From a bacterium (lineage in GTDB: Bacteria > Patescibacteriota > Microgenomatia > Levybacterales > UBA12049), in contig JAJYDJ010000004.1 in NCBI GenBank assembly GCA_021777565.1, forward strand, positions 34,077 through 98,076: a stretch of 64,000 bases of DNA. The letters run 5' to 3'. This document shows, piece after piece, positions 10,856 to 63,187 of this stretch. How positions within the stretch are numbered: position 1 is the stretch's first letter; every line of letters begins with the position of its first letter. Made by a program: the position numbers and the translations under genes. Below the pieces are notes generated by a model. It saw only the letters and a program-made list of their open reading frames with translations, searched no databases and was not told the origin of the DNA.

Positions 10856-10926
10856 TGCCGGATCGTCTAATGGTAGGACAACGGACTCTGAATCCGTTTA
10901 TCTTGGTTCGAATCCAGGTCCGGCAG
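10856..10926 (+). tRNA. tRNA-Gln (anticodon CTG)
   Basis: Folded by hand. Acceptor TGCCGGA/TCCGGCA (7 bp), D-stem GTCT/GGAC with loop AATGGTA, anticodon stem ACGGA/TCCGT with loop CTCTGAA (U33, CTG, A37), variable TTAT, T-stem CTTGG/CCAGG with loop TTCGAAT, discriminator G. CCA is not encoded. Confidence 0.8.
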
Positions 10927-26596: not shown

Positions 26597-26681
26597 ATCT
26601 CCCTCAAACTTTGCTGCACTCAATTCTGGGGCATCTGTACTAAAAAGATTCTTTCTGTCATAGAAATGGTATACTCACTGT

Positions 26682-27218: not shown

Positions 27219-27247
27219 TCTTGTAAGGATCAGTTGTTTATTTTTAT

Positions 27248-27724
27248 ATGGATACAACATCAAACAAACCATATCGTCTTGGTGTAAACGCAATCGTTAT
27301 TGACCAGGATAATAACTTTCTTTTGGTGCAAAAGAATGGGTATAAGGATAATGAGTGGAACTTCTTAGGTGGTGGCCGAGAGGAAGGAGAGACATTGGAG
27401 CAGAACTTGTTTAGAGAGTTGAATGAAGAAATTGCTATAGAGGAATCAGATTTCGAAATGGTTGGCGTAAGCTCGCATAAAATTGAATATGATTTTCCAG
27501 CAGATACTGTTTTAAAAATTCATGGTGGAAAATATCGTGGGCAATCGTATGACCAGGTTATTCTCAGGTTTATTGGAGACAAGGCCAAGCTTGTTTTCTC
27601 TACAGGAGAATTTAGGACCCATAAATGGGTCAAGGCAGATGAATTAGAGAAGTGCTTGATCTTTCCAAACCAGTACAGCAATCACAAGAAGGCAATTGAT
27701 GAACTTATGCCAGGAATCTTGTAA
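27248..27724 (+). CDS. NUDIX hydrolase
   Basis: 158 aa. Nudix box GGGREEGETLEQNLFRELNEEIAIEE (GX5EX7REUXEEXGU). Confidence 0.75.
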   Translation: MDTTSNKPYRLGVNAIVIDQDNNFLLVQKNGYKDNEWNFLGGGREEGETLEQNLFRELNEEIAIEESDFEMVGVSSHKIEYDFPADTVLKIHGGKYRGQSYDQVILRFIGDKAKLVFSTGEFRTHKWVKADELEKCLIFPNQYSNHKKAIDELMPGIL

Positions 27725-28542: not shown

Positions 28543-29034
28543 TTAGCTTGCGAAAACGAAATTAGAAGGCATACAGTATGTAGGGACATGGAAATGTTTA
28601 TCGTTCGAGCCACAAAAAGTTCGAATACTGTCTATGTCCGGCAGCATTCGTGGACTTTGTTCGTACAAAGACTCCAATTGGACTGTCCTATCAATCCCAT
28701 CCACAGGTTCTAACTTATCGTTAATTGCATTTGCCTCTTGGGCAGCGTCTTTTAGTGCTAAAAGTACTTCATCAAGGCGAATTGTTAAAATTTTGTCTTT
28801 TAAAATGAGGTTCGAACCAAGTTTTGCCAGAATATATCGCTTGTCTTCTACCTCTCCCTCGTTAAATCTCTTTAGAGCATCTCTTGCAAAGTCAAATGTC
28901 TCATCGGCTTTAGCCAGCCATTTATTTACTCGTTCTCCTGTGTCATTAAGTAACTCCTCAAGTCTTTGCAAAGGTAAAGATTCCTGTTCCTTCTTTAGAG
29001 GAACAAGCAGAAATCGTAAAAGAAATTGATGCAA
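28543..29034 (-). pseudogene. C-terminal remnant of a second large serine recombinase gene
   Basis: The 163-aa ORF aligns with the C-terminus of the intact recombinase (10867..12642): RVNKWLAKADETFDFA...KRYILAKLGSNLILKDKILTI vs RADEWLELCEQTFNFA...KRAILHALGSNLTLTDKILSI. The catalytic and recombinase domains are absent. Confidence 0.6.
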
Positions 29035-29688: not shown

Positions 29689-30909
29689 GTGACGAGAGTA
29701 CAACTTACCAATAAGACATACATATCAACAGCGACAGATGACGTTAAATTATTCTACCCAAGATCTCAAATGCAATCAGGTGAGCTCATATCAGGTTTTC
29801 AAGTAAATCGAAAACTAATTGATGGTCTCACAAAAGCTGAAGTTGTGTTTTTTTCAATGTTTTGGAAGCCAATCGGCGATTCTTTTCTATTTTTGTCTGT
29901 CTTAACCGCTTGTCTGGAATATTTGCAACTTACTCGACTAAATAATATGCCCAAAATTATCATTGATGACACGTTTTCTAACCTCATAAGACATCTGAAC
30001 ATACTCACAGAATATGAATTTATTTCACATGCAGTTGATTGGTTTAAGCAAAGCGTGCGCGAGAATAAAAATGTTGTTTTAATAACTGACGATGATCCAT
30101 TTACAATGGGAGAAAGTCCTGCAGTATTTAACACAGAAGAATATGTTTATCCGAAGTTTCACGAGAAACTAGTTGATGGCGATATTATCGATTATCCCTC
30201 ACGGCCAGCGAGATATTTTCTAACCTTTGAGAGAGAGGTAGGTATTAGATTAAAATCTGATCCTAATCTATCGCTTCCTGACTTTATCATGAATGATGAT
30301 ATTACTCTCACACAAAAATGTATAAATGATTTTGGGATTGATCTTGATACTCCTGGCCTTACATTCCTGGGAGTTATTAACCAAACCAGCATGGTGGAAA
30401 AAAAATTTGGAGGTCTAAGGTATCTTGAGGTAATAGATAAGCTATATGAGCTTAATAAAAATATTGCTGTTCTTTTCCTAGCTAACACAAAAGAAGAGTC
30501 GCCAAGTGAATGGCTAGCAGTTCTTGAAAAGATTAAAAAAAGTCCATATAAGGTCTATTTGATCGACTCTCGGGATTTTGAATTGCTTGCCTACATGTTC
30601 GCTCGATGCAAGTTGGTGTTGGGGAATGATACAGGCTTTTCTCATTTAGCCGCAATGTGTAAAAGATCCTTGTTAGCACCAAATGTGCCTTGCGTGATCA
30701 CTTACTCCAGACATGATTATGGGAAATGGAGTACAGGAAAAGAAAATGTCTATCCTGTCGTCACAGAGTTAAGTCAATACCTCAAGGATAGTAACTCCTC
30801 AATTAGTCGAGACAAAATTGATGTTACCAACTGGGGTTTAAAAGAGTGGGCATATTCTATATCTGAAGACGCTGTTTTTAACAGAATCAAAAAAATATGG
30901 GAAAAGTAG
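29689..30909 (+). CDS. GT9-family glycosyltransferase (heptosyltransferase-like)
   Basis: 406 aa. C-terminal LVLGNDTGFSHLAAMC resembles the GNDSGPMHLAAA signature of ADP-heptose:LPS heptosyltransferases. Confidence 0.6.
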   Translation: MTRVQLTNKTYISTATDDVKLFYPRSQMQSGELISGFQVNRKLIDGLTKAEVVFFSMFWKPIGDSFLFLSVLTACLEYLQLTRLNNMPKIIIDDTFSNLIRHLNILTEYEFISHAVDWFKQSVRENKNVVLITDDDPFTMGESPAVFNTEEYVYPKFHEKLVDGDIIDYPSRPARYFLTFEREVGIRLKSDPNLSLPDFIMNDDITLTQKCINDFGIDLDTPGLTFLGVINQTSMVEKKFGGLRYLEVIDKLYELNKNIAVLFLANTKEESPSEWLAVLEKIKKSPYKVYLIDSRDFELLAYMFARCKLVLGNDTGFSHLAAMCKRSLLAPNVPCVITYSRHDYGKWSTGKENVYPVVTELSQYLKDSNSSISRDKIDVTNWGLKEWAYSISEDAVFNRIKKIWEK

Positions 30910-31841
30910 ATTTAACTATTCTTGTACCTGCTTGGAATGAAGAAAGAAATATAACAAGCTTTCTTAGTGATATTGCAGATCAATTAAATTATAGTTCATT
31001 TAAAACAGATGTCATCATCCTTGCTAATGGATGTGTCGACAATACTATCCCACTGGCAAAGTCTCATATACAAAAACAGTCCTTACCAAATGTTTCATGG
31101 CTAATACAAGTGTTTGATGATCCATTTAAGAATAAAGTTCTTAATGCAGGCATCGAGTTGGCAAAATCCGATATTATACTCAACCTTGATGCCGATTCTC
31201 GTTTAGAAAAAAATTGTATTTCTCGCCTTTATAGCTTTTTACTAGATAATCCAAAGGTTAATTTAGTTGGAGGGCTGGATATACCTATTTACGACAAGCT
31301 CAATAAGGAAACACTACTTTATCAATTTCAGAGAACTCAACAGATCTGGAGAGAAGAAAGAGGTCGTGTTATGGCAATCGGTGCTGTTATGATGTATCGT
31401 AAATCGTCATTTAACGGGTTCCCCTTGGATGCAATCTCTGAAGACACCTGGCTCTCTTTATACATTGCTTCTAAGTTTGGCTGGGAATCTGTAAAAGTAC
31501 TCATGGATGCCAATATTCACATCTTCGCTCCGACAAGTTGGAGTGATTACTTAAAACAACAAACTCGTTGGGACACAGGATATGTCCAACTTATGAAAAA
31601 CCACCCAGAGCTTCAATCAACGTATGATAATCGTAGAAGCTTGTTTAAAAGAAGAAGTAATGAAGAGATATTCGAGAGTGTATACAACAGGCTTGATGAA
31701 GAAAAGATAGCTCGATCGCGCTTAGTTGAGCTTCGTGATATAATCAATATCATTATTGAAGAAAATAGTGATATTGAGTACGACTCAATACTGAGAAATG
31801 TAGGGACATGGGACCCTATTATTTCCACAAAGGGAGCATAA
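30897..31841 (+). CDS. family 2 glycosyltransferase
   Basis: 314 aa. LTILVPAWNEERNI, ILANGCVDNT, DADSRL (DxD). Overlaps the upstream GT9 gene by 13 nt. Confidence 0.7.
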   Translation: MGKVDLTILVPAWNEERNITSFLSDIADQLNYSSFKTDVIILANGCVDNTIPLAKSHIQKQSLPNVSWLIQVFDDPFKNKVLNAGIELAKSDIILNLDADSRLEKNCISRLYSFLLDNPKVNLVGGLDIPIYDKLNKETLLYQFQRTQQIWREERGRVMAIGAVMMYRKSSFNGFPLDAISEDTWLSLYIASKFGWESVKVLMDANIHIFAPTSWSDYLKQQTRWDTGYVQLMKNHPELQSTYDNRRSLFKRRSNEEIFESVYNRLDEEKIARSRLVELRDIINIIIEENSDIEYDSILRNVGTWDPIISTKGA

Positions 31842-31842
31842 T

Positions 31843-32499
31843 ATGAAAACTTATACGAGAGATGAAATTTATGAGCTTCACAAAAAATATACTCAAGGCG
31901 CTCATCCTGAGCGTTTTCTAGATAGTGTCTGGACACATTCTCAAATTGTTGCTGAAATTGCAGATCGTATTTGTGACTTTCTCAAAAAGACGTATGAGGT
32001 CACTCCTAATCGCGAGTTAGTTCAGACTGGGGCACTTCTTCATGACATTGGAGTATATAAATGTCATGATGACGAGTTAAACCCCGTCCAGGAGCCTGGA
32101 TATATTTCCCATGGTATAGAAGGCTATAAAATACTCAAAAAAGAAAGTTATCCAGAGTACTTGGCTCGCTTCCCGTTGTCACATACAGGAACAGGTATTA
32201 CAACAGAAGATATTGAAAGAGAAAACTTCAACTTAGAACTTAAAAATTATATTCCTGTCACTCTTGAAGAAGAGATTGTTTGCTATGCTGACAAGTTTCA
32301 TACAAAGTATCCAGCTTTTGACACGTTTGATAAAGCAAAGTCTAGACTTGAGAAATTTGACCCAAGTAAAGGGATACTTATGAATCGATTTAAAAAGAAG
32401 TTTGGTATTCCTGATGTAAGCGATCTAGAGGCCAAATACAAAGATTGGCAAGAAGAGTTAGATCACTACCTCACCTCCCTGTCCGAAGCTAAAAAATGA
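31843..32499 (+). CDS. HD-domain metal-dependent phosphohydrolase
   Basis: 218 aa. H...GALLHDIGVYKCHDD (the HD motif) plus downstream His/Asp residues. Confidence 0.65.
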   Translation: MKTYTRDEIYELHKKYTQGAHPERFLDSVWTHSQIVAEIADRICDFLKKTYEVTPNRELVQTGALLHDIGVYKCHDDELNPVQEPGYISHGIEGYKILKKESYPEYLARFPLSHTGTGITTEDIERENFNLELKNYIPVTLEEEIVCYADKFHTKYPAFDTFDKAKSRLEKFDPSKGILMNRFKKKFGIPDVSDLEAKYKDWQEELDHYLTSLSEAKK

Positions 32500-33602
32500 T
32501 CTCTAAAGAATTAGTTGTCATAGAACGATATGTCCCTAGAAATCCTGTCCATGAACCAAATAGAGATGGTTTTCGTGCAGACAGTTTATTAGTAATCGAC
32601 AATGCCGATTTAGGTCCAATTGGTGTAGTAAGAAAAAAGACGCATTACGTTAACAGTCCAGCAGATGTGATGATAATGCCCTTAGAGGGAGCAATCTCAC
32701 AAATTACTGAACTATCCGAAGCAGAAGCAGCCTCATTCTTGTTAACTTGTGCGAGAGTAGTTGATGCAATGAGAGAAATTTCGCCTGATGGCTCTCCAGT
32801 TATTGCAATAAATCAGCAACCTGATTGTATAATGCTTCCTACTAAATTTGCTCCAGATGGCACTGAGCTTAAAGTACAGACAATAGATGCAATACATGCA
32901 CATGTATTTTTAGAAGATGGGCGAGGACTACCGCGTGGGACAATTTCTTCAATGGATAAAGTTGCATCAACTGACTTCTTTGATCCACTCGGACATGCAG
33001 TAAGTCAATTATTTATTAGTGAGGTTAATAGACAGTTGGATGAAGCTGGGCTTGCTACTCAATCAACATACAACACAGATCACTTCCCACTTGGTATCAA
33101 TGTACCTTTCGACGGAGATATTGTTGCAGTACTTACAGATCCTCGTATTGCACGATTTATACAAGCTACGCAGAGGAGTTACGTACAGACATATAGAATG
33201 ATTGAGCAGATTTGGCAAAATTACTCAGGTGAAGCAAGGCGAGATCAGATTACACAATTTTTCTCAGGGTTATCTGGAGAAAACATACAAGTAAGAGAAT
33301 TTGTAGAAAGAGTGATTCTTTCTCTTAGAGAAGATGTATCTGGTGTTGAAAGACACCATAGATTAGTACAAGGCCCTGCTCTGACCTGGGTTATTTATGA
33401 AAGAGATGGAAGGTGTTATATTCACTTAACTCCTCGCTTTTTTTCTCGCGGAAACGCAATGGAAGATTTAGGGGTTTGGGTAGAACCAGTAGAGGAAGTT
33501 ACACCAGATCTATCTGAAGCAAATGACTTCTATAGGTTACTTATGGTAAAATTGGGATCAACCCTTCTTGTTTCTGAAGGTGCATCCTTATATGAAAATT
33601 AA
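32496..33602 (+). CDS. hypothetical protein with HIT-superfamily-like N-terminal region
   Basis: 368 aa. LLVIDNADLGPIGVVRKKTHYVNSPADVMIMPLEG...IDAIHAHVF resembles the HIT fold, but the third His of the HxHxHxx nucleotide-binding motif is replaced by Phe. Tentative. Confidence 0.3.
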   Translation: MISKELVVIERYVPRNPVHEPNRDGFRADSLLVIDNADLGPIGVVRKKTHYVNSPADVMIMPLEGAISQITELSEAEAASFLLTCARVVDAMREISPDGSPVIAINQQPDCIMLPTKFAPDGTELKVQTIDAIHAHVFLEDGRGLPRGTISSMDKVASTDFFDPLGHAVSQLFISEVNRQLDEAGLATQSTYNTDHFPLGINVPFDGDIVAVLTDPRIARFIQATQRSYVQTYRMIEQIWQNYSGEARRDQITQFFSGLSGENIQVREFVERVILSLREDVSGVERHHRLVQGPALTWVIYERDGRCYIHLTPRFFSRGNAMEDLGVWVEPVEEVTPDLSEANDFYRLLMVKLGSTLLVSEGASLYEN

Positions 33603-35274
33603 AAAAGCAAATAAAGTGCCTTTCATAACCTCACTTGAGGACGATTTCCTATCAGGAAAGAATAAAAAACAGAAAAAGTTATTCAATGAGGTAATTGATG
33701 CTGGATTTGATTTTTATTCAGGCAAACAACGTGATCAAAAATTTCTTGTCTATAGAACTCCAGACGAGCTTAAAGAAGTCTTTGCAGAAGCAATGCCAGA
33801 AGATAGTACTGACCTACCGTCAATCATCAACTATCTCAGACTAATCGGACACTATTCAATTTCCCAATCAGATTTGAGCTACTTAGCGTTTCCTGACTCT
33901 GGGAACTCTATAGCTGCACTACTTGGAGACATCTATGGTAAATTTTTGAATCAAAACCTGATTGCATTTGATCGAAGTGCACCAGCAGCAACCATTATAG
34001 AAATTCAGCTTATTGAATGGTTACGAGCGTTAATCGGGTATGAAAGTAAAGAGTTAAAGCAAATTGAAAACCTAGCAGAAGTATCAGGTATGTGCACGAC
34101 AGGCGGGCATATGTCAAATCACGTAGCCACTCTCTCTGCACTTAATTGCAAATACCCTCAAATAAAAAAAGATGGGCTTTCAAGTCTAGATCATTCCCCG
34201 AAAATAGTTTTAGCTGGCAAGATAGGTCACTACTCATATGGAGCTGCTATGCACCATTTAGGACTTGGGAACGCAAATATTATTAACACTGATTCTAACG
34301 ATGACTTCACGACTAACATAGATGCACTTGAGAATGTGTTAGAACAGCACAAGGACAAAAATGATATTTTTATGGTTGTAGCAGTAGCGGGAAACTGTAG
34401 AACAACGGGAATAGATAACATTGCCTCAATTGCGAAAATATGCAAGAAATATGGAATATGGCTCCATGTTGATGCATGTCATGGAGGCAGTTTATTATTC
34501 TCTGATAAATTAAAAAAACGCTATCTCATGGGTATCGAAGAGGCAGATTCTGTCGCACTAGATCCCCATAAAGGGCTTTTTGTGGCATACCCTTGCAGCT
34601 TTGTTCTCTTTAAGAAGAGAGATACGCTTGTAACATTCACTCGATATGAAAAAGAGGCAAGAAATGGTGAATCATGGGATTTAGGTTACATAACACCTTT
34701 CTTAGGATCAAGAGGATTTGAGTCCCTCAAGCTTATGTTACTCATAAAGCACTTAGGCAAAAAAAGGCTGAGCGAGATAACTGAAAAAAGGCAGGGAGAT
34801 GCCTTATATGTAGAGTCACTCATAGCAAAGTCAGGATATTTTGTTTTGTTTAATGATATGACATTTTATCGAATGGCTTTTGTTTATTATCCAAACAAAA
34901 TTAGAAAGCAAGTCTCAAAGTTCACTCTCTCAGATGAGACTAATCAAAAAATTATCAATTGTATTGATCATTATACACATACAATCAACAGTGAGTTATA
35001 TAAGGAAGGTGATATTTGTCTTGATGAGTTTAAATTACATGACATAGGGAACCAGACAGCAACTAATGCTAAGGAGACACGATTTTATGTAATGAGTATT
35101 ACGACAGGTAACCCACTACTTACCAATGAGAACTTAAAGAGATCCTTAAGCTTTCTCTTTAAAAAGGCAAAGCGTTACGAGTCTGCTATGGGAAAAGACA
35201 TAGTATCTATAATAAAAAGTGACACATATGCCCCGAAGGTAACAAAAACATATGGACCAGCAGGATGGAATTAA
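33568..35274 (+). CDS. PLP-dependent group II amino-acid decarboxylase
   Basis: 568 aa. The Lys-containing S-x-H-K site is in DSVALDPHKGLFVAYPCSFV, with an upstream GGHMSNHVAT-type region. The start may be the Met at 33592. Confidence 0.7.
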   Translation: MFLKVHPYMKIKKANKVPFITSLEDDFLSGKNKKQKKLFNEVIDAGFDFYSGKQRDQKFLVYRTPDELKEVFAEAMPEDSTDLPSIINYLRLIGHYSISQSDLSYLAFPDSGNSIAALLGDIYGKFLNQNLIAFDRSAPAATIIEIQLIEWLRALIGYESKELKQIENLAEVSGMCTTGGHMSNHVATLSALNCKYPQIKKDGLSSLDHSPKIVLAGKIGHYSYGAAMHHLGLGNANIINTDSNDDFTTNIDALENVLEQHKDKNDIFMVVAVAGNCRTTGIDNIASIAKICKKYGIWLHVDACHGGSLLFSDKLKKRYLMGIEEADSVALDPHKGLFVAYPCSFVLFKKRDTLVTFTRYEKEARNGESWDLGYITPFLGSRGFESLKLMLLIKHLGKKRLSEITEKRQGDALYVESLIAKSGYFVLFNDMTFYRMAFVYYPNKIRKQVSKFTLSDETNQKIINCIDHYTHTINSELYKEGDICLDEFKLHDIGNQTATNAKETRFYVMSITTGNPLLTNENLKRSLSFLFKKAKRYESAMGKDIVSIIKSDTYAPKVTKTYGPAGWN

Positions 35275-36622
35275 AATAAGAACTATATTAGAGTCAAATA
35301 GATTCTTATCGCCAACATACTCAAAGTGGTATGCGAATATTTTTGTGGATTTGTTTCACAGTAGTAGTCTCAGCCCTAGTGACTGTTTAAACCAGCTCGA
35401 AGCTGGTTATCATCCTCATAGAGTTTTATATAAATTTTTAGGTGGAAGCACATTTACGCAAGATAAACTTAACTATCATCCGATTGATTACAGTAAACAT
35501 ATTTCATTCTGCACGAAAGATGAACAAATGCATTGTAATGACCATGATCTAATTGACTACCTTAATTCTCAATATATTGGTAATTTTTCTGGATTTATCG
35601 AAAGCCTTTCTCCAATAACTACGGGAAGAATGTACTTAGATACTGGCACTGCACCGAAGCTACTGTTTCTCCCAAATAACAGAACATTTGTAGTTATTTG
35701 TATAAAGTCACAAAAGGAATATCTTGCAAATTACTATGTACTGAGTAGGCTGTTTAATGAAAGTAACTGTTGTAATGATCTTACTATTAAGACTATTGAT
35801 TCAATTGGTGTAGTGCGCAGCAACGGATTACAGTACTTCGTATCAGAATTTAAAGGTTTAGATTATGAAGCACTGATACTTGAATATGATAAAACAGAGA
35901 AAAAAGATACCTTATTAAGGGTATCACGAGAGCTAGAAGAACTATTTCTGGAAAACAATCTTTTTATTAGAAATCTTGCTCCTAGAAATATTTTATTTAA
36001 TGGCAATCATACGAGCTATCTTATTGATTTTGACAATGTCTATAACATCGAGGACAAGCACGATGTAAAACTCGCATCTAAGGAATTAAACAGAGACATA
36101 TGGTATGGGGATGTACTCTCTCGAAGAGATATAAAAACAATATTCAAAAAAAGAATCTTTTCATTTCCAGATGAGGCACAATTAACAGACATCTTTGAAA
36201 CGACTTTCTTTGAACGAGACAAAGTTAGATCAAGGGACTTAAAATACCTTTACTCTTTAGTAAGAGCCTTCGAGCAGTATGATCATTATTTAGACATAGA
36301 TATCTATGGTCACCAATTGGGTAGGTATATCTCAGATTATTGGGATTTATCAAGTGAAGTTAAACTGTATAAGTTTATTGCCCAAAATAAAACAAAGATT
36401 AAATACCTTAGAGCAATTCTTTATTTATTGTCTAGGCTCGATCAGGAGTTACTTCTAAGAAAAAAATACCACTTAGATAAAGATCTGGAATTGTTATCTG
36501 AACTAGCATTTCATAAAATTGCAGAAAATAGAGCTAACCCAGGTGTGAAGGCTCTTAAAGTTACACTTGATCCAGATTTAAGTTTCACAGAAAGGTACTT
36601 GGCGGTAAGGAGTGCAATATGA
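35252..36622 (+). CDS. hypothetical protein with protein-kinase-like / APH-like catalytic loop
   Basis: 456 aa. IRNLAPRNILFNGNHTSYLIDFDNV resembles an H/xRDxxxxN catalytic loop plus a DFD (DFG-like) motif. Confidence 0.35.
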   Translation: MDQQDGIKIRTILESNRFLSPTYSKWYANIFVDLFHSSSLSPSDCLNQLEAGYHPHRVLYKFLGGSTFTQDKLNYHPIDYSKHISFCTKDEQMHCNDHDLIDYLNSQYIGNFSGFIESLSPITTGRMYLDTGTAPKLLFLPNNRTFVVICIKSQKEYLANYYVLSRLFNESNCCNDLTIKTIDSIGVVRSNGLQYFVSEFKGLDYEALILEYDKTEKKDTLLRVSRELEELFLENNLFIRNLAPRNILFNGNHTSYLIDFDNVYNIEDKHDVKLASKELNRDIWYGDVLSRRDIKTIFKKRIFSFPDEAQLTDIFETTFFERDKVRSRDLKYLYSLVRAFEQYDHYLDIDIYGHQLGRYISDYWDLSSEVKLYKFIAQNKTKIKYLRAILYLLSRLDQELLLRKKYHLDKDLELLSELAFHKIAENRANPGVKALKVTLDPDLSFTERYLAVRSAI

Positions 36623-37161
36623 AGAAAAAAATATCATGGAAAGAACTAACAACAAGAAATGGCTATCCAGCTGACGAAGTAATATCTGCACTCCAAAAAG
36701 AGATCCGTCGCAATAATCAGGATAAAGCAGTTTACTGGGCATATGAGTTATGCATCTCTGGGAAAGTATTTGAGACAAAGTTCTGGGAAAGAATAATAAC
36801 TATCTCAGTGGAAGACATTGGTTTCGGTAACCCTTTGGCCGTTGTAATAGTCAATTCTCTTAAGAACTCATATTACTCTGAATTTGAGCACCAAGACGAC
36901 TCGTTAATTCAGGCTCTATTTGCTGCAGCATATTTAGCCTCATGCACGAAAGACAGATACATTGATGAATATAAAAACTATCTAAAAGAGAGTAAAATCA
37001 AGTTAGAGGTTCCTGATTATGCACTAGATAAGCACACAAAGAGGGGAAAGACATTGGGGAGAGATGACAAACACTTCTGGACCGTCGCAGCTAAACTTTC
37101 TCCTGAGTTAGCAAAAAGGAACAAGAAGTATTTAAAACTTGTCTTAAAATCACTCAAATAA
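36619..37161 (+). CDS. hypothetical protein
   Basis: 180-aa ORF with a 4-bp overlap with the upstream gene. No motif recognised. Confidence 0.35.
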   Translation: MKKKISWKELTTRNGYPADEVISALQKEIRRNNQDKAVYWAYELCISGKVFETKFWERIITISVEDIGFGNPLAVVIVNSLKNSYYSEFEHQDDSLIQALFAAAYLASCTKDRYIDEYKNYLKESKIKLEVPDYALDKHTKRGKTLGRDDKHFWTVAAKLSPELAKRNKKYLKLVLKSLK

Positions 37162-37162
37162 A

Positions 37163-38350
37163 ATGGCAGAGGCAGAACCACTTCGAATTGGTATTGATGT
37201 CAGTAGAGCTAGTCGTGAAAATCATGGCATTCCCATTTATACACGTAGCGTCTTGGCTGAGCTTGGCAAGTTAGATACGACTGACCAGTTTGTCTTATTA
37301 AGTTATCCAGATAGTCCAGTTGCTCATGGATTTGGCCTTCAAGATCCTGAGTTAGCGGCAATTCCATATTCTGGGAGATATATCCCTTGGGTGAGAGTAT
37401 TTCAGGAACAAGTGCTTTATCCAGCAGCACAACAAAGGCTCAATTTAGATGTCATGTGGCACCCTCAAAATCATGGCCAGTTTTGGACTCCAGTTGGTTA
37501 CGTTTGTACCCTACATGATGTTTTGCCATACTCCAGACCAGATCTTGCGCAGGACTTAGACACAAGAAGAGAGCAAGCTCTTTACTGGAGTCGAGTACAA
37601 AGTGCTGCTCACGCAGACATGATAATCACAGTCTCAGAATTTAGTAGAAAAGAAATCATTAGGCTACTTGGCGTTGATCCATCGCGCGTTGTTGCAGTAC
37701 AGAATGGTATAGACCACACAACATTTAGAGTTCTACGGTCAGAGGTAGATAGAGCAAGACTACAAACACAATATGGTTTACCAGAAAGATATGTTCTTAC
37801 AGTTGGTAGTTATGGACCACATAAGGACCTAGCAACAATGATAAGGGCATTCAAAACCAGCGACCTCATGCGACTTGGATATAACCTCGTTATGGTAGGG
37901 CCTAAGGATGAAATTGTATACACGTCTGACCATGAAGGATTGGAAGAGATGGTGAGGGACGAAGGGCTAGAAGGAAGAGTCTTAATGCTTCCACCAGTGC
38001 CAGTTACAGATTTAGTAGGGATGTATAACGGTGCCAGTATGTTTTGCATTACATCTCAATTTGAGGGGTTTGGGCTTACGCCTCTCGAAGCAATGGCTTG
38101 CGGGGTACCTGTTATTTCATCTGACTCAAGCTCGTTGCCTGAAGTTTGTGGGAACGCGGCGCTATATGCTCATGTCGGAGACTATCTAGGGTTTGCCGAG
38201 CGGATGAACTTATTAGCAACGGATATTGAATTAGCTCGCAGAATGACTAGCTTAGGCCTTATGCAAGCTGCCAAATACGATTGGGCAACTACCGCTCAGA
38301 AAACACTTGATATATTACAACGGGTCGGAAGAACGAACAGAAGGTCTTAG
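37163..38350 (+). CDS. GT4 (group 1) glycosyltransferase
   Basis: 395 aa. C-terminal [28 protein letters not shown] is the classic GT4 motif. Noticeably higher GC than its neighbours. Confidence 0.8.
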
Positions 38351-38505: not shown

Positions 38506-38856
38506 TTAGCTAGAATCCGACACTTCGAAGAAGTTAGTGCCCTTGTGGTACACGTCCGGCAGCACGTTTGTACGCATGTCTGGCTTAAGAAGCACAACAT
38601 ATGGCTTTTTGAAGCTAAAAGTAAGCATTTTGTCTTTCAAAAATTTATAGCGCCATCCGTGCCAAAAGTCGCTGTCAACAAAAATAAGAAGCGAGCCGTT
38701 TACTATGCAGTCAGGCTTACCGTAGAGCTTGGGGTGCTTCTCATAGTTTATTTTATAGCTGTCTAATAAACCCAAAAACTTTTGCTCTAGCTGCGTATTA
38801 GTACTTCTAATACTAGACATGTTATATGTGCGTTGAGCTTTAGTGAGGTTGTCCAT
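38506..38856 (-). CDS. vsr: very-short-patch repair endonuclease (Vsr)
   Basis: 116 aa. TKAQRTYNMSSIRSTNTQLE...GKPDCIV...FVDSDFWHGW matches the Vsr N-terminal and catalytic motifs (RSxNMSxIRsKNT...PD...FxHGCFWH). Confidence 0.7.
   Translation of the reverse strand: MDNLTKAQRTYNMSSIRSTNTQLEQKFLGLLDSYKINYEKHPKLYGKPDCIVNGSLLIFVDSDFWHGWRYKFLKDKMLTFSFKKPYVVLLKPDMRTNVLPDVYHKGTNFFEVSDSS
38545..38564. repeat. att-core-like copy of the tRNA-Gln 3' end (GTCCGGCAGCA)
   Basis: GTGGTACACGTCCGGCAGCA. The 11-nt core is identical to tRNA-Gln 10918..10928 and 17/20 identical to the 41404..41423 copy. Lies inside the Vsr 3' coding end. Confidence 0.5.
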
Positions 38857-38881: not shown

Positions 38882-39901
38882 TTAAAATTCCATGTAATAT
38901 TTGTCGCCGTCCATTTTGTAAAAATTGATGCTGTTTCTGCCGTATGCGTCTAATGTATCTTGAGTAACAGGAGTAAGAGGTAACAAAGCACCGCTCTTTT
39001 GCAGTTTGCCTTTTATCCATTGGCCTAATATAGATAAATTACCCCTTGAGCGGATATTTTTGAAATAGTCTCCACTTGTTTTCATTGGAATAATAAACCC
39101 ATCATCTGTGTAGGCAGTAAAGTCGCCCTTGGGGTAAAGAGGGTTAGAGGTAATGTCTCTATTTGCAATCAACTCTACTTCATACCATGGCCTCGCGAGC
39201 ACCTTTCCTGTTGTCCTGCTCCACCTGCCTTTACCAAAATATACATTAAGATTTGATTTTTCTTTATCAGCAACTCTTGTAAGAGGGTAGTCTAACTCTG
39301 GCAGCAAAGACTTATCTACAGTAGCGGGGTCATATTTGGGTAAGTCATCAAGCGTCTTGAGAGAAATCTTATTACTGTAGTCAGAAGTACCAGGTACAAC
39401 AATATCGGCTTTAACTATAGAAACAGCATTATCCGGCTGGAAAAGATAGTCAAGAAAGTTATCTAAGCCATTTACTGTTTCGTCATCACCTATTGAAGCC
39501 GTACATTCAATGTTTTCTGTTAAACCGCTGCGGGAGAAATTTGATGAGCCCAAGTAGTACTTCTTTTGCTGTGCATTTTCAAAGAGGTATACTTTCCCGT
39601 GATATTTGCCATTATAACTAACATAAACTCCGCTGCCATTGCCTAAACTTTCAAGGCTGTTACTCAAACTGGTTAAACGGGTTAGTTTATTTGCCGTCAG
39701 ACCCTCATAAAAAGCCATACCAACAAGAAGTCTTGCTTTCCCGCCTTTTTCTGCTATTCTCTCAAAGTCACCATAAAATTTATTGATTATATCCAGAGAA
39801 ACGTAGCCAGATGCTATCGTAACGCTTTCAGCATCTCTAAATTCATTTTCAACTTTTTGCAGAAAATTTCCGCCTGAGCCATCTGTATTAGTCCACAACA
39901 T
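38882..39901 (-). CDS. PLD-family (Nuc/BfiI-like) restriction endonuclease candidate
   Basis: 339 aa. YHGKVYLFENAQQKKYYLGSSNFS fits the HxK(x)4[DE](x)6-9GSxN phospholipase-D nuclease motif. Sits between a C5-MTase and Vsr. Confidence 0.45.
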   Translation of the reverse strand: MLWTNTDGSGGNFLQKVENEFRDAESVTIASGYVSLDIINKFYGDFERIAEKGGKARLLVGMAFYEGLTANKLTRLTSLSNSLESLGNGSGVYVSYNGKYHGKVYLFENAQQKKYYLGSSNFSRSGLTENIECTASIGDDETVNGLDNFLDYLFQPDNAVSIVKADIVVPGTSDYSNKISLKTLDDLPKYDPATVDKSLLPELDYPLTRVADKEKSNLNVYFGKGRWSRTTGKVLARPWYEVELIANRDITSNPLYPKGDFTAYTDDGFIIPMKTSGDYFKNIRSRGNLSILGQWIKGKLQKSGALLPLTPVTQDTLDAYGRNSINFYKMDGDKYYMEF

Positions 39902-39907
39902 ATTTAG

Positions 39908-41017
39908 TTAGCCAACTAGTGGCAGTTGATTATAATTTTTACTTTCAACTTGAATATATTTCAAGGCATCGCCTGAGAGTTGTCTAAGTTGTTTTTCTTC
40001 TGTCTTAGTATAATTACCTGCAAATACTTTCATAAGCTCTTTTGCTACTGCTCTAACACCTGCTGGGGGGACTGAATTGCCTATTTGCTTTCTAACCTCA
40101 GTTATTGTGCCTTCAAAAATAAAGTCATCTGGGTAGCCAAAAAGCCTTGCACGCTCTCTATTGGTCAAAGGCCTTGGCTCACTATAGTGATAACCCCAAG
40201 TGCCTCCCCCTCCGCCTGCAATAATAGTTGTAGATGGTTTATTCCTATTAAGCCTGCGGTAAACATGGCTAATCATACCTTTAACATAGTATGGGCTGTC
40301 TTTGGGAATATCTGTAAAATTTCCTCCCTCTGGAATTAGGCTTATTATTTTTGCAGTCCTTTCTTTAATATTTATTAGCTCATTGTTATAAAGTGCTTTT
40401 TCAACGCCTTTTAGAGCTTCACCGGTAGTCACATAATTAGTTGCATTATGAGTCGGCTCAGGCTTCACAAATTCAAAGGGAATATCGTTTCTAATACCTA
40501 TTATGAGTACTCTTTCTCTTAATTGAGGCACGCCATATTCTGCAAAGTTAAATAAATTTACATAAATTCTATAACCAGCCCCATCAATATGAGAGAAATC
40601 TTTTACTATTTGCTTTATAGCCATTCCTTTATTTGCCGTTAGTATTCCCTTGACATTTTCTGCTACAAATACTTTTGGTAATTTAGTTTCAACTGCTCTG
40701 ACGAAGTGTTTATATAAGTTACCTCTATCTGTTTCAATACCGCCTCTTTTCCATATCATTGAAAAGTCCTGGCATGGAAACCCGCCGGTAATTATGTCGC
40801 AGTTGGGGACTTTGTTAAAATCAACATCATTTATGTCGCCCTCAAATATGTGGTCTCCAAAATTTCTTTTATAAGTTTCGCAAGCAGCATGGAAGTTGTC
40901 ATTTGCCCAAACTACCTCAAAACCCTCTTTCGCAAAGCCTAAGTCAAGACCGCCACAACCGGAAAATAAAGATAATATTTTGGGTTTATTCGTTTTGCGA
41001 GCTTTACCATTTTGCAT
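39908..41017 (-). CDS. DNA (cytosine-5)-methyltransferase
   Basis: 369 aa. Motif I LSLFSGCGGLDLGF, motif IV GGFPCQDFS, motif VI ENVKG, C-terminal motifs QIGNSVPP. Confidence 0.85.
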   Translation of the reverse strand: MQNGKARKTNKPKILSLFSGCGGLDLGFAKEGFEVVWANDNFHAACETYKRNFGDHIFEGDINDVDFNKVPNCDIITGGFPCQDFSMIWKRGGIETDRGNLYKHFVRAVETKLPKVFVAENVKGILTANKGMAIKQIVKDFSHIDGAGYRIYVNLFNFAEYGVPQLRERVLIIGIRNDIPFEFVKPEPTHNATNYVTTGEALKGVEKALYNNELINIKERTAKIISLIPEGGNFTDIPKDSPYYVKGMISHVYRRLNRNKPSTTIIAGGGGGTWGYHYSEPRPLTNRERARLFGYPDDFIFEGTITEVRKQIGNSVPPAGVRAVAKELMKVFAGNYTKTEEKQLRQLSGDALKYIQVESKNYNQLPLVG

Positions 41018-41380: not shown

Positions 41381-41403
41381 CTACGAAGTAGCTAGTACTT
41401 TTA

Positions 41404-41423
41404 GTGTACAGGTCCGGCAGCAA
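41404..41423. repeat. second att-core-like copy of the tRNA-Gln 3' end
   Basis: CAGGTCCGGCAGCAA (41409..41423) is identical to tRNA-Gln 10915..10929 (15/15). The copy at 38545 shares a GTGTACA-GTCCGGCAGCA context. Confidence 0.5.
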
Positions 41424-41515: not shown

Positions 41516-42430
41516 TTGTTTTTAGGCTTAAGATACATGATGAAAAGATACCTATTCCAATTAAATAACACATATAATAACGAAAAACCTTTCTACGAGA
41601 TAGATTCACTACCTAACTCAGACGTAGTTAAAGTTTATATATTCGGAGGCAGAAGTGACTTTGCACCAAATGGAATGGGTAGTATCTATATCTATTTAGA
41701 ATTGCGTGATGAACTTACCCCAAGAAATGTCTTTTATAACCTTCAGAGAATACTTAACCTGATTTATTTAGAAACTGGAAGTTCAACGTACTACAGAGAA
41801 ATTCCATTAAATGGGTTAAGTAATTTTGATGAAATTTATACTACTTTTGGTGCTTCTAAATATTTTGACGGCGCTACAAGTTACCATGGGATTACTCCAG
41901 AACCGAATCATATTTTAAGAGTTCAGCAACTAATAACACTGATTAACAAGGTAAATGAAAATGAGTTTATGAAATTTGATAATTCTTTAAATACATACGT
42001 GTGGGCTTTAGAATTAAGAGAGCTTCCTAATCCTCATCTGAAATTTACTTTATATATGACTCTTCTTCTTTCGTCTATTGAGCAACTGTCTAGTAGTCCT
42101 AGCAACTGTGACTTTCATGATCCTTGTCCTAAATGCCAAAGAGAGCTTTCCCATCATGTAAAAGGGCAGGGACAAAGGCAAGCTTTAGAAAACCTGATTA
42201 GGCACTTATTGACAGGAGCTGGTGTGGAAGATGGGGTTAAGCGAGTGAGTCTATTATATGGAAAGCTTCGGTCATCCTTTCTACATTCAGGGAATTTATA
42301 TGGAGGAGAAAAAGATGGAGGATTTTTAGAGGGGGTAGAGAACGACACTGAATTGTTAGAAGATGAGCTAAATATAATACTTCTTGTTAGAAAGTTATTA
42401 GAGCAGTTCCTAGTTAAAGGCTCTCAATAG
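41516..42430 (+). CDS. hypothetical protein
   Basis: 304-aa ORF in a low-GC stretch. No motif recognised. Confidence 0.35.
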   Translation: MFLGLRYMMKRYLFQLNNTYNNEKPFYEIDSLPNSDVVKVYIFGGRSDFAPNGMGSIYIYLELRDELTPRNVFYNLQRILNLIYLETGSSTYYREIPLNGLSNFDEIYTTFGASKYFDGATSYHGITPEPNHILRVQQLITLINKVNENEFMKFDNSLNTYVWALELRELPNPHLKFTLYMTLLLSSIEQLSSSPSNCDFHDPCPKCQRELSHHVKGQGQRQALENLIRHLLTGAGVEDGVKRVSLLYGKLRSSFLHSGNLYGGEKDGGFLEGVENDTELLEDELNIILLVRKLLEQFLVKGSQ

Positions 42431-42733
42431 TTGGAATACAAACATAAAAGTATGACCTCACGAAAAGAACACTCAGTAGTAACTTTTACCGTCTATATAC
42501 TTCGTACATCATCTAACACAATCTACATTGGTCAGACGAATAATCTAGACAAACGTTTAAAGGAGCACAAAAGTAAAACGACGAGGTCGGCGAAGTACAT
42601 GAAGTATTTTGACTCTTTTGAACTGGTGTATACAGAAGTCTACGGGACCAGAACCGAAGCACTGCAGAGAGAGTGGCAGCTGAAACAACTGACGAGAAAG
42701 CAAAAGGACGCTCTGATAAATAAGCATTATTAG
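42431..42733 (+). CDS. GIY-YIG nuclease-domain protein (UPF0213/YhbQ-like)
   Basis: 100 aa. VYILRTSSNTIYIGQTNNLDKRLKEH is the GIY...YIG motif plus the conserved R and E. Confidence 0.65.
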   Translation: MEYKHKSMTSRKEHSVVTFTVYILRTSSNTIYIGQTNNLDKRLKEHKSKTTRSAKYMKYFDSFELVYTEVYGTRTEALQREWQLKQLTRKQKDALINKHY

Positions 42734-42774
42734 AACTCTGTGAGAGTAGATACCCTCAAGTGAGGTATTAACCT

Positions 42775-43647
42775 TCACGTCTTTATAAAAAGAAGGACTA
42801 GTCCAGCAGTAACACCAACCACACCGATAAACTTTCTCTTTGTCAATTCATCTTTAAAGAAGAATGAAGAGAGAAGAGTGATCAGCGTAATGGATGCAGC
42901 ACTAGCTGCATTAATATATCCAGGATTAGGTGAGCTTGTATAGCCAAGCTGCGTATACAGATTGTAGAGGAGTGACATGCTGCCGATTATGAGAAGAATA
43001 AATGCTTTTGAGATACCAAGTGTTATTTTTCTCTTGTTTATGATTGCTTCACTGACTAAACAAATAGTTACAAAAAGAAACAAGTAAAAAAGATAGACAT
43101 ACACAGGTACTCCAACATGAATAATATAAACAGACACCAGAGTCAGAAATGAAAAACAAAAAAATGCGCCAATTGCCATGATCGCCCATTTATTATTTTT
43201 ATTTGACGGTTTTTTCGTTGACTGAGGAGAAATGGTAATAAGAGCAGAAAATACTAAAATAAGGCATATTGCTACTGTGCTCGTAAATGTGAGAGATGAA
43301 TGAAAGAAAAATACTGCAAAAAGAGTTGTGAAGACTACATAAGATTTTGTAATGGTAAGGCTGTATCCAGGGTTTGATGCCTGAAGAATACTTGTTTGGG
43401 ATAGGATGTTACCAATATAACTGAGAAACACAGCAGCAAGAAATATAATTGCAAGGTTAGGCCATGAAATCGCAATTGACCCATGGGCATTATATATTAA
43501 CCAGGTGTAACCAATGAGTGGGATAGCAAACATTGCCAGAAGATACTCAGTAACAGAAATATTATGCACTTGCCCTTTTCGTATGAACAGGTACATGACA
43601 ACTGATGCCAAAAAAAGTGCAATACTATCAAATACCCAAATTGGCAT
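42775..43647 (-). CDS. EamA/DMT-family membrane transporter
   Basis: 290 aa. About 10 hydrophobic helices arranged as two 5-TM repeats. Very AT-rich. Confidence 0.55.
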   Translation of the reverse strand: MPIWVFDSIALFLASVVMYLFIRKGQVHNISVTEYLLAMFAIPLIGYTWLIYNAHGSIAISWPNLAIIFLAAVFLSYIGNILSQTSILQASNPGYSLTITKSYVVFTTLFAVFFFHSSLTFTSTVAICLILVFSALITISPQSTKKPSNKNNKWAIMAIGAFFCFSFLTLVSVYIIHVGVPVYVYLFYLFLFVTICLVSEAIINKRKITLGISKAFILLIIGSMSLLYNLYTQLGYTSSPNPGYINAASAASITLITLLSSFFFKDELTKRKFIGVVGVTAGLVLLFIKT

Positions 43648-43703
43648 AGAAAAATTATAGCAGAACTATTTTAAAAATATTCTTGACGAGGGGAAACATT
43701 TCT

Positions 43704-43997
43704 TTATCCTTTTGTAGGGTTGAACTTGCCAGACACTTTGATAATCTTGTCACCTTCTGCAAAACTCTCCCAGGTTTTCTTACTCAAGGATACGGTCTTC
43801 TCTTGACCATCATCGGTTTTTACTACCAGATGATAGGTAGTGTACGTGTTGTCATCAGCTCCATCGTGATCTCGAGAATATTTTCTTGCAACCACACCAG
43901 TATATGCTTGCTTCTTGGTGTTCACGATCACGAACCAGACAATAACGCCACACAGGACCAACGTACCAGCAATAGTTAAAAATGAGACCATAGTCAC
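43704..43997 (-). CDS. small membrane-anchored hypothetical protein
   Basis: 97 aa. N-terminal TM helix followed by a charged soluble domain. I prefer this over the overlapping + strand ORF 43683..43979. Confidence 0.35.
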   Translation of the reverse strand: MTMVSFLTIAGTLVLCGVIVWFVIVNTKKQAYTGVVARKYSRDHDGADDNTYTTYHLVVKTDDGQEKTVSLSKKTWESFAEGDKIIKVSGKFNPTKG

Positions 43998-44051
43998 ATT
44001 TTATACAATGACAGGCATGATCGCAAGAGATAAATCTGATATACTGTACTT

Positions 44052-44435
44052 ATGGACACCAATAAGCTAACGATTGTCATTAACAAACCACTTACTGAGG
44101 TGTTTGCTGCCTGTGTCACTCCACCCATGGCCAAACTTTGGGTGCCAAATATCATCAACGAAACTACCAGTGAATGGCCAGTAAAGCCGGGGACTATCTA
44201 TACTGAATATAAAAATGATAATACTTCCTTTAATATCATCGTGACTGAGTACGAAGAGAATGCCTATATTGAATGGCAGACAGAAGATGGCAATTACCAC
44301 GTGCGTTATACCTTTACCCCCATTGACCAGAGCACGACTCAACTAGAATACGTCGAGACAGGGGATGTTAGCGAACCATTTACTCAAGAAATTTTAGAAA
44401 AACTCAAAGAAGTGATCGAAAATACTCCTCGTTAA
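44052..44435 (+). CDS. SRPBCC (START/AHSA1/polyketide-cyclase-like) family protein
   Basis: 127 aa. Beta-rich pattern beginning LTIVINKPLTEVFAACVTP...W. Confidence 0.45.
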   Translation: MDTNKLTIVINKPLTEVFAACVTPPMAKLWVPNIINETTSEWPVKPGTIYTEYKNDNTSFNIIVTEYEENAYIEWQTEDGNYHVRYTFTPIDQSTTQLEYVETGDVSEPFTQEILEKLKEVIENTPR

Positions 44436-61822: not shown

Positions 61823-63187
61823 TTATTGTTTCACTTCGTTGAGACGAATATCAATGCGTTCCATATCGCGAGGGAACATAGAAGCCTCACGAATATTTTT
61901 CAATTGGAGTATCTGCATGGTGATGCGCTCGGCCCCAAATGCAAATCCGCCTTCTGGTGGCACACCATAGGAAAATGCTTCCAAAAACATTGAGATTTTT
62001 GCAGGGTCCATCTTCCACTCCTTCACCTGCTCGAGCAGTTGATCATAGTCATTCACTCTTCTGCCACCTGATAACCATTCAATTCCACGACAGAGAAGAT
62101 CCATGCCTTCGTTGTATTCGGGATCTTCAGGATTTGGATAGACATAGAATGGCTTTTTCTTGGTTGGATAGCCATAGACAAAAACAAAATCTGATCCTGT
62201 CTCTTCTTTGACGATGGCACACAGTTCTCGTTCATCCTCAGGATTAAGATCTTTTTCGTCTCTGACATCTCGTCCAGAGTGATCAAAAATCTTTTGCTGT
62301 GCTTCACGAAGACTCATGGTTGGGGTCTCATCTAACATGACCGGAAGAGTAGTCTGAAACAATTCTAGCTCTTTGGCGCACTTTTCACCAACTTGCTTGA
62401 GAATATATCTGACCGTTGCGGCTGCCATATCACGCACTTCTGTCCATGACTCAATAAAACCCATTTCAGCATCCAGTGAGACAACTTCGGTCAAGTGACG
62501 AGTCGTCACACTTGGCTCAGCGCGAAAGATTTTGTTTACAGAAAAGACTCTCTCAAACGCACTCATCACAATCTGCTTATACAGCTGTGGACTCTGCGTC
62601 AAGTATGCTTTGTGGTCAAAATATTCGATCTGAAATACTTCAGAACCACCTTCTGCGACTGCTGGAGTAATGCATGGAGCCTGAAATTCAAAGAACTCTT
62701 GAGATTTTAAGAATTCTCTAAACGCATCGATAACCACTGCCTGCACTTTGAAAATAGCTTGGACTCGTGGATGTCTGAGGGTGAGACCACGATGATCAAG
62801 CATGGTTGGAAGTTCAAGATTAAGCTCACTATCTCCCATGTCAAAAGGCAGGGGAGCCGCTTTGGCAAGAATAGTAATGCCATGTGCCTCTAGTTCTACC
62901 GTGCCGGTAACAAGTTTAGGATTGATAAGTTTTTCTGGGCGAGCATTTACTTTCCCTGAGATCTCAACCACGTATTCACTTTTGACTTCACTGGCTACGT
63001 TGTACGCTTCTTCTGAGACTTGGGGAAGTACCACGACCTGCATCACTCCAGAGCGATCACGAACATCAAGAAAAATAATTTTCCCATGGTCACGACGAAC
63101 GTGCACCCATCCTTTGATAGTAACTTCTTCGCCAACTTTTTCAACAGTTTGTGCGATCAATGTACGCATGATGATATTGTACCGCAA
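61823..63187 (-). CDS. aspS: aspartyl-tRNA synthetase, archaeal/eukaryal type, core-genome copy
   Basis: 454 aa. OB domain VTIKGWVHVRRDHGKIIFLDVRD, QSPQLYKQIVMSAF, motif 2 FRAEPSVTTRHLTEVVSLD, motif 3 GVPPEGGFAFGAERI. Confidence 0.85.
   Translation of the reverse strand: MRYNIIMRTLIAQTVEKVGEEVTIKGWVHVRRDHGKIIFLDVRDRSGVMQVVVLPQVSEEAYNVASEVKSEYVVEISGKVNARPEKLINPKLVTGTVELEAHGITILAKAAPLPFDMGDSELNLELPTMLDHRGLTLRHPRVQAIFKVQAVVIDAFREFLKSQEFFEFQAPCITPAVAEGGSEVFQIEYFDHKAYLTQSPQLYKQIVMSAFERVFSVNKIFRAEPSVTTRHLTEVVSLDAEMGFIESWTEVRDMAAATVRYILKQVGEKCAKELELFQTTLPVMLDETPTMSLREAQQKIFDHSGRDVRDEKDLNPEDERELCAIVKEETGSDFVFVYGYPTKKKPFYVYPNPEDPEYNEGMDLLCRGIEWLSGGRRVNDYDQLLEQVKEWKMDPAKISMFLEAFSYGVPPEGGFAFGAERITMQILQLKNIREASMFPRDMERIDIRLNEVKQ

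Follow-up and report, generated by a model that had tools for sequence, protein, structure and literature searches.

Why should a bacterium with a complete aspartyl-tRNA synthetase (AspRS, gene aspS) of its own hold a second one? Duplicate AspRS are usually interpreted as a pair of discriminating (D) and non-discriminating (ND) enzymes, or as antibiotic resistance. The question is raised by a stretch of 64,000 nucleotides from a small Patescibacteria genome (contig JAJYDJ010000004.1; the whole stretch is called "the window" here), in which one aspS (the core copy) is accompanied by another in a low-GC island (the island copy). We found that the second AspRS gene came into the genome at the head of a conserved operon, aspS-SDR-fusion, on a serine-integrase element in a tRNA-Gln gene. 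SDR denotes a short-chain dehydrogenase/reductase, and fusion a protein that joins a part resembling glutamyl-tRNA reductase (GluTR) to an AspRS core. The explanation we favour, with chances that look about evenly balanced from the sequence, is that aspS is carried along as a functional partner for an undescribed enzyme that reduces aspartate. The duplicate AspRS itself is of a known sort, and the operon is a new combination of known parts. The window suggests a third reason for a duplicate AspRS, namely that the synthetase gene belongs to a mobile conserved operon with an AspRS-derived enzyme.

Two synthetases of different type

A sequence-only reading of the window had described two full-length archaeal-type AspRS, each with the OB domain, QSPQ, motif 2 and motif 3 and neither with the bacterial GAD insertion. 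Two intact full-length open reading frames (ORFs) are present exactly where it placed them (Table 1). Both encode the OB anticodon-binding domain (PF01336) and the class II core (PF00152; E-values 1e-76 and 1e-119, so that the domain match is not due to chance). QSPQ and the two motifs are readable in both translations, and a Pfam scan gave no match to the GAD domain (PF02938) in either protein. The typing, in contrast, had to be corrected, as only the core copy is of the archaeal type. It passes both archaeal-type models (NF003483, 477.8 bits, cutoff 353; TIGR00458, 381.8 bits, cutoff 368.4), whereas the island copy stays below these cutoffs (247.9 and 217.0 bits) and passes the bacterial models NF001750 (644.8 bits, cutoff 443, in two stretches) and TIGR00459 (588.1 bits, cutoff 373.85). 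The identity between the two proteins is only ~31%, which rules out a recent duplication.

Two separate blocks of the island copy (PF01336 1.7e-15, PF00152 6.3e-119) match T. thermophilus AspRS1, residues 11-295 matching 13-297 and residues 303-461 matching 420-577; the protein is thus a bacterial-type enzyme missing the ~120-aa GAD insertion. The gap is evident against PDB entries 6hhv, 1efw and 4wj3, with query residues 295-303 bridging T. thermophilus residues 297-420. The segments FRDED...DRQPEFTQ, GGGSIR and GIAWGLDR align to the T. thermophilus and P. aeruginosa AspRS. The best 120 homologues listed are ~457-510 aa long, 66-75% identical and all GAD-less; the named ones among them are aspartate--tRNA ligases of Paceibacterota, Taylorbacteria, Vogelbacteria and similar groups. 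Ordinary chromosomal neighbourhoods surround the three closest homologues whose context was read (74-75% identity), one of which sits amid TrpRS, ScpAB, S11 peptidase, MraY, FtsW and MurG genes. To judge from homologues with 70-75% identity, the GAD-less bacterial-type form is the usual housekeeping AspRS of the Paceibacteria branch. A small peculiarity of the island copy is Ser at residue 79 ('RSEK', in an anticodon-domain loop), which is Pro in 118 of the 120 family members.

The solved structures closest to the core AspRS are those of T. kodakarensis AspRS (3nel) and T. thermophilus AspRS2 (1n9w). Its homologues with 72-82% identity, annotated as aspartate--tRNA(Asn) ligase, belong to Saccharimonadales, Cerribacteria and Levybacteria. 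The gene order CCA-adding enzyme/RecJ/aspS/S11 peptidase/357-aa protein/GluRS is kept in two related genomes (loci L113 and L114), whose aspS is 78-80% identical. The host genome belongs to the Saccharimonadia/Microgenomatia branch of the Patescibacteria. The core type is found in this branch and the island type in Paceibacteria, which points to a native core gene and to an island gene from the other main branch of the Patescibacteria. Judged by sequence and synteny, the archaeal-type aspS is the host's own, vertically inherited gene. The data show a divide within the Patescibacteria: some lineages have a bacterial-type AspRS without GAD, others an archaeal-type one, and genes are carried across this divide on serine-integrase elements.

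The listed ORF of the core aspS begins with TTG (63187); the alignment of homologues and of T. thermophilus AspRS2 begins six codons downstream, at ATG 63169, and the representative of its 90% cluster starts at the equivalent ATG. This is probably the true start, giving a protein of 448 aa. Some archaeal-type AspRS of Patescibacteria (P0335, P0337, P0355; 74-75% identical to the core copy) are longer, with 602-616 aa, and have an extra editing domain of the YbaK/ProX type (PF04073).

The operon and its mobile element

In the window the operon genes nearly touch, with 2 nt between aspS and SDR and 1 nt between SDR and fusion. Its conservation was surveyed in 22 informative Patescibacteria loci, i.e. 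those with flanks long enough to judge. A bacterial-type aspS lies no more than one gene away from the fusion gene in 15 of these. The order aspS-SDR-fusion is present in 12 loci, namely the window and, with SDR orthologues of 52-64% identity in the middle position, L005, L008-L012, L019, L022, L024, L025 and L111. At L006 a GNAT acetyltransferase gene (9447..9983) takes the place of SDR (aspS-GNAT-fusion). At L027 and L029, whose fusions belong to a clade with no more than 32-34% identity to that of the window, fusion comes first and aspS follows directly. Gaps between genes range from -29 to +70 nt across the aspS-fusion loci. Such adjacency across loci speaks for aspS and the enzymes beside it being functionally linked.

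The genomic setting of the operon varies. At L006 and L010 it is found within a housekeeping neighbourhood (ScpAB-S11-MraY-FtsW-MurG-GluRS). At L005 a GAD-bearing bacterial-type aspS stands directly upstream of SDR-fusion, and a separate archaeal-type AspRS gene is located 5 kb downstream, so that the pattern of two AspRS plus fusion arose independently more than once. One subclade of fusions (L007/L021, L014-L018, L023; 45-48% identical to the window protein) is without adjacent aspS or SDR. In this subclade a convergent gene for a metallo-beta-lactamase-fold protein of 267-268 aa always lies directly downstream on the opposite strand.

As the sequence-only reading had noted, the second AspRS lies in a low-GC stretch next to AspRS-derived genes. 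The GC content between ~11 and 44.5 kb is 0.33-0.39, compared with 0.42-0.46 in the flanks. The comparison of the two copies that it had asked for agrees with this, with a GC content at third codon positions of 0.284 for the island aspS versus 0.396 for the core aspS (gltX 0.385). Island and flank genes are also separable by their synonymous-codon preference. The AspRS-derived neighbours are two, the fusion and a stand-alone core of 324 aa.

The borders of the island became apparent from a short repeat. GTCCGGCAGCA, the last 11 bases of the acceptor arm of tRNA-Gln, occurs four times in the window, only on the + strand, at ~0.005 copies per strand expected by composition. These attachment (att) cores of 11-15 nt were found by short-word blastn and were not seen with repeats of at least 18 nt or with tRNA 22-mers at up to 3 mismatches. 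The second att core holds the same relative position in an integrase remnant (matching the C-terminal 105 residues) as the att core does in the intact gene. The features expected of a serine-integrase element are all present: a large serine recombinase, a tRNA gene as its target, and att cores repeated in direct orientation at the borders. Three integrative elements are stacked head-to-tail at the one tRNA-Gln gene, and the aspS operon is on the first, which is 17.7 kb long (Table 1).

Upstream of the island aspS no T-box or riboswitch was detected (Rfam gave tRNA only), and matches to promoters and terminators were no commoner there than in shuffled sequence. A search for the empty site with the left-flank M16 peptidase returned only ~25% identical proteins from JGI metagenome contigs. 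The fusion was not found in IMG/VR viral contigs.

Table 1. Features of the window, in window coordinates
Feature	Position	Strand	Evidence
tRNA-Gln(CTG), integration target; 3' end holds att core at 10918..10928	10856..10927	+	tRNA scan, repeat search
Large serine recombinase/integrase of element 1, 591 aa; 3' end overlaps tRNA-Gln	10867..12642	-	Resolvase 5.6e-14, phrog_95 135 bits
Element 1: integrase, four ORFs without assignment, 324-aa core, GT2, 281-aa gene, aspS-SDR-fusion, amidohydrolase, P-loop, NUDIX	10918-28636
Stand-alone fusion-core member, 324 aa, no OB domain, no reductase half	18123..19097	-	PF00152 1e-64
GT2 glycosyltransferase	19229..20263	+	Pfam; linked to 324-aa core as in L028
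281-aa gene of unknown function	20260..21105	-	linked to 324-aa core as in L028
Island aspS, bacterial-type AspRS without GAD insertion, 464 aa, operon gene 1	21452..22846	+	NF001750, GAD gap
SDR, YdfG-like (3-hydroxy-acid dehydrogenase type), 248 aa, operon gene 2	22849..23595	+	PF00106 1.5e-47
Fusion, 666 aa, operon gene 3: GluTR-like catalytic and NAD(P)-binding (~1-355), archaeal-type AspRS core (~360-666), no OB	23597..25597	+	Pfam
Downstream cargo: Amidohydro_2 (25607..26596), P-loop kinase-like (26682..27218), NUDIX (27248..27724)	25607..27724	+	Pfam
Integrase remnant	28543..29034	-	39% identical to integrase residues 474-578
att core copy 2, right end of element 1, inside integrase remnant	28636..28646	+	11-mer repeat
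Element 2: GT9, GT2, HD protein, pyridoxal phosphate (PLP)-dependent decarboxylase, GT4; cargo cluster 29689..38350	28636-38554
att core copy 3, end of element 2	38554..38564	+	11-mer repeat
Element 3: only NgoFVII-like (PLD-type) restriction endonuclease and C5 cytosine methyltransferase, 38882..41017	38554-41412
att core copy 4, end of element 3	41412..41422	+	11-mer repeat
Core aspS, archaeal-type, non-discriminating-type AspRS, 454 aa	61823..63187	-	NF003483, structures, synteny

Predicted chemistry of the fusion protein

In the fusion protein Pfam recognises GlutR_N (score 36.7, cutoff 27), Shikimate_DH (43.5, cutoff 24.3) and tRNA-synt_2. The family has 259 database matches, those listed being 27-64% identical, mostly ~640-690 aa long and most with the same three Pfam domains. 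The named matches among them come from Patescibacteria (Falkowbacteria, Kaiserbacteria and others), and homologues are present in more than 100 Patescibacteria assemblies. An AlphaFold2 model of the fusion has a predicted local distance difference test score of 87, and its best structural match by Foldseek is T. kodakarensis AspRS, on which the core half superposes with a root-mean-square deviation of 1.8 Å over 312 aligned columns. AspRS and AsnRS prevailed among the matches of the whole model, and for this reason the GluTR half was verified through its sequence alignment to the GluTR structures 4n7r and 1gpj. In the alignment to A. thaliana GluTR (4n7r), 'viekCNAvm' falls on 'vlstCNRme', Cys55 matches the Cys of 'STCNR', and GxGxxG and NR(T/S) are kept.

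Residue conservation was determined from an alignment of 27 diverse homologues. Invariant or near-invariant in the reductase half are K54-C55-N56, the residues G114..S117..G121-D122-x-Q124-V125 (the GLxSxxxGDxQV motif of GluTR), GxGxxG at 195-200 and N219-R220. The synthetase half has invariant QS(N)QxYKQ with K429, R448/E450 of motif 2, D465, R597 in GWExxSGAxRE and R640 of motif 3. We take QS(N)QxYKQ with K429, D465 and R597 to bind aspartate, and R448/E450 and R640 to bind ATP. As all of these Asp- and ATP-binding residues are kept, the fused class II core is predicted to bind L-Asp and to activate its alpha-carboxyl group. Cys55 and the NAD(P) site are kept as well, which suggests that the GluTR-like half would capture the aspartyl group as a thioester on Cys55 and reduce it with NAD(P)H to the amino-aldehyde 3-amino-4-oxobutanoate. 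The SDR, whose best NCBIfam match is YdfG (232.8 bits, under the cutoff of 411), could then convert the aldehyde to the alcohol.

Which acyl donor would be used? It may be Asp-tRNA(Asp), made by the bacterial-type AspRS of the operon, charged by the fused core, or both, in which case the tRNA would act as a swinging arm; the other possible donor is Asp-AMP directly. The sequence cannot decide between the two: the coupling to a complete aspS argues for tRNA, and the intact adenylation site together with seven aspS-free loci argues for the fusion alone. Because of the aspS linkage we slightly prefer a tRNA-linked donor. An element reaching a host with an archaeal-type AspRS would then bring its own compatible aspS. 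More specifically, the fusion might represent an unrecognised enzyme class, an aspartate alpha-carboxyl reductase assembled from components of translation, which uses Asp-tRNA(Asp) with the tRNA swinging between the synthetase core and the GluTR-type thiol/NAD(P)H site and depends on a bacterial-type AspRS; we regard this as possible, on balance doubtful. Such dependence would explain why a bacterial-type aspS stands beside the fusion in genomes with an archaeal-type AspRS (the window and L005). As a variant, the reduced product may feed an AspRS-directed adenylate analogue, the aspS of the element being an insensitive copy.

To our knowledge, the GluTR fold is the only aminoacyl-tRNA reductase fold, and in the fusion it is combined with a class II core for aspartate activation. 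Should the predicted chemistry hold, it would be the second biological case of aminoacyl-(tRNA or AMP) reduction, and an undescribed metabolic capability in organisms believed to be nearly devoid of biosynthesis. Our literature search found no published fusion of GluTR with an aminoacyl-tRNA synthetase (aaRS), no Asp-tRNA reductase and no GAD-less Patescibacteria AspRS. A 2022 review of aaRS duplications names only AS-A/AS-AR and ErdS as AspRS-derived proteins and does not include the fusion (PMC9437257).

Several known systems resemble parts of this arrangement. With HemA of the C5 pathway, which acts together with GluRS, the N-terminal half of the fusion shares the GluTR catalytic and NADPH-binding domains and the nucleophilic Cys, and both show genomic coupling to the cognate aaRS. 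Unlike HemA, the fusion scores only 91.6 bits on the hemA model TIGR01035 (cutoff 209.55), has Ala for the Arg that binds the gamma-carboxylate, and has an AspRS core in place of the dimerisation domain. A HemA role in heme synthesis is ruled out by the loss of this glutamate-binding Arg, by the low model score and by the neighbourhood, as neither hemL, hemB nor any other heme-pathway gene is found near the fusion.

The synthetase VlmL, a SerRS of the valanimycin cluster, is dedicated to a non-translational pathway. ErdS, a fusion of AspRS with DUF2156, is likewise an aaRS serving such a pathway (PMC7334510). As in these systems, a complete AspRS is coupled to an enzyme expected to consume activated aspartate. 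In contrast to ErdS, the coupling here is by operon and not by fusion, and the consumer is a predicted reductase instead of a transferase; in contrast to both, the partner AspRS is in an ordinary housekeeping neighbourhood in at least two donor genomes. AsnA and AS-AR have, like the fusion, an aspartate-activating class II core without anticodon-binding domain (PMC9437257). They differ in that the canonical AspRS residues for alpha-carboxyl activation are retained here, and in that the core is fused or linked to a reductase. On AsnA models the 324-aa and fusion cores reach only 130.4 and 107.5 bits (NF005052, cutoff 368) and 124.8 and 75.2 bits (NF005054, cutoff 309), far below cutoff, by which an AsnA-type role is ruled out for the 324-aa core.

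Adenylation followed by thioester formation and NAD(P)H-dependent reduction to an aldehyde is also the sequence of steps in carboxylic acid reductases and in alpha-aminoadipate reductase (adenylation, thiolation and reductase domains). Their adenylating and reducing folds are, however, unrelated to those of the fusion, which is without carrier protein; any carrier here would be a tRNA. That a class II core can hand an aminoacyl group to a thiol is known from amino acid:carrier-protein ligases (PMC9437257).

The 324-aa protein of element 1 is a relative of the fused core: it keeps 59 of the 75 positions that are invariant in the family of fusion cores, versus 42 and 38 in the two canonical AspRS. 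At L028 a full fusion takes its place, beside homologues of the same GT2 and 281-aa genes. When the reductase half alone was compared with a representative library of 1.84 billion proteins, stand-alone GluTR-like forms of ~340-380 aa were obtained (P0364, P0368, P0375-P0377), so split versions of the fusion exist. The fusion is also split at L025/L026, where a reductase half of 383 aa precedes a core half of 274 aa.

Alternative explanations and the remaining cargo

Four observations weigh against a partnership of aspS with the fusion. The Arg that recognises the glutamate side chain in GluTR corresponds to Ala57, so that the substrate of the fusion has to be deduced from the synthetase half only. 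An adjacent aspS is missing at seven of the 22 loci. The fusion probably makes Asp-AMP itself, as its complete adenylation site suggests, and so may need no AspRS. Finally, the island aspS is 74-75% identical to housekeeping copies versus 64% to the aspS of the closest fusion homologue, and a neighbour-joining tree joins it with fusion-free housekeeping copies and not with the aspS of that nearest homologue; the aspS of the operon is thus not a specialised clade.

The last three points are equally what passive hitch-hiking would lead one to expect, which is the main and strongest rival. In this scenario the element captured a block in which SDR-fusion lay downstream of the housekeeping aspS of a donor, the fusion works tRNA-free, with Asp-AMP handed straight to Cys55, and the additional AspRS is superfluous or of slight benefit. 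Class II cores that hand an activated amino acid to non-tRNA acceptors are indeed known (AS-A/AS-AR and the amino acid:carrier-protein ligases; PMC9437257). Hitch-hiking does not, however, easily account for an adjacency that persists in two arrangements of the genes, between fusion clades of 32-34% identity, with genes overlapping or nearly touching. It also fits poorly with L005, where the bacterial-type aspS is kept at the operon despite the archaeal-type AspRS nearby, and with the intact state of the island aspS, which at 645 bits is above the equivalog cutoff. We consider hitch-hiking rather unlikely.

Could the two AspRS instead divide labour as in Thermus and Deinococcus? T. thermophilus and D. 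radiodurans likewise have one enzyme of each type per genome, a bacterial, discriminating AspRS1 and an archaeal-type, non-discriminating AspRS2 (1efw and 1n9w for T. thermophilus). The archaeal-type enzyme would then feed GatCAB for Asn-tRNA(Asn), and the bacterial-type copy would charge tRNA(Asp) only. Here, in contrast to these genera, the archaeal-type copy is native and syntenic, and the bacterial-type copy is acquired, GAD-less and located on an element, where it shares an operon with a reductase derived from AspRS. The anticodon-domain residues were compared at the positions of P. aeruginosa H31 and G83 and of T. kodakarensis W26, which we take to be ND/D indicator sites. The core copy has His at the W26 position (ND-like) and the island copy Lys at the G83 site (D-like), in agreement with such a split; at the H31 site the island copy shows His ('RRDHG'), which is ND-like, so that this two-residue prediction is mixed, and both residues of the island copy are typical of its family. 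Archaeal-type ND enzymes, moreover, normally serve both tRNAs, and in the 20 kb read around aspS at L113 and L114 the archaeal-type copy is the only AspRS gene. The island copy sits on a recently acquired mobile element, and its place in a conserved operon already explains its presence. A division of labour seems quite improbable to us. The sequence read comprised the window and ±10-kb flanks of a 953-kb contig, and neither gatCAB nor asnS nor asparagine synthetase genes are among the genes of the window.

A second aaRS in the gene cluster of an inhibitor producer is an established resistance strategy, and aspartol, the predicted alcohol, is the amino-acid moiety of a known synthetic AspRS inhibitor. 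It is nevertheless very improbable that the island makes such an inhibitor (an aspartol- or aspartyl-adenylate analogue, via the P-loop and NUDIX genes that follow the operon in the window) and carries an insensitive AspRS for self-resistance: its AspRS is typical of the family, with catalytic motifs unaltered and 74-75% identity to copies in housekeeping context, the same operon is in a housekeeping neighbourhood in at least two donor genomes, and the Amidohydro_2, P-loop and NUDIX genes are not conserved beside the operon at other loci. Scanning the island genes with Pfam, NCBIfam and PHROGs yielded glycosyltransferases, SDR, amidohydrolase, kinase-like, NUDIX, PLP decarboxylase and restriction-modification proteins, with no recognisable genes for inhibitor biosynthesis (ThiF/MccB-like or of another known pathway). 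The sequence-only reading had preferred resistance or dedicated supply over redundancy, and its argument against mere housekeeping redundancy, from the foreign island and the AspRS-derived neighbours, stands. Dedicated supply is favoured by the conservation of the operon (15 of the 22 loci) and its location on an integrase element, and resistance is left without support.

As for the other genes on the stacked elements, neither Pfam nor PHROGs gave a match for the four large unassigned ORFs of element 1. Element 2 retains only the C-terminal integrase remnant. Its PLP decarboxylase is matched best by aspartate 1-decarboxylase PanP and 2,4-diaminobutyrate decarboxylase, both below cutoff. This element also encodes unknown proteins of 368 aa and 456 aa, the C-terminal domain of MgsA alone, and a GT4 gene of host-like overall GC content (0.444). 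Beyond the last att core the low GC content continues for ~3 kb (41516..44435), covering genes for a 304-aa unknown protein, an EamA-type transporter and an SRPBCC-fold protein.

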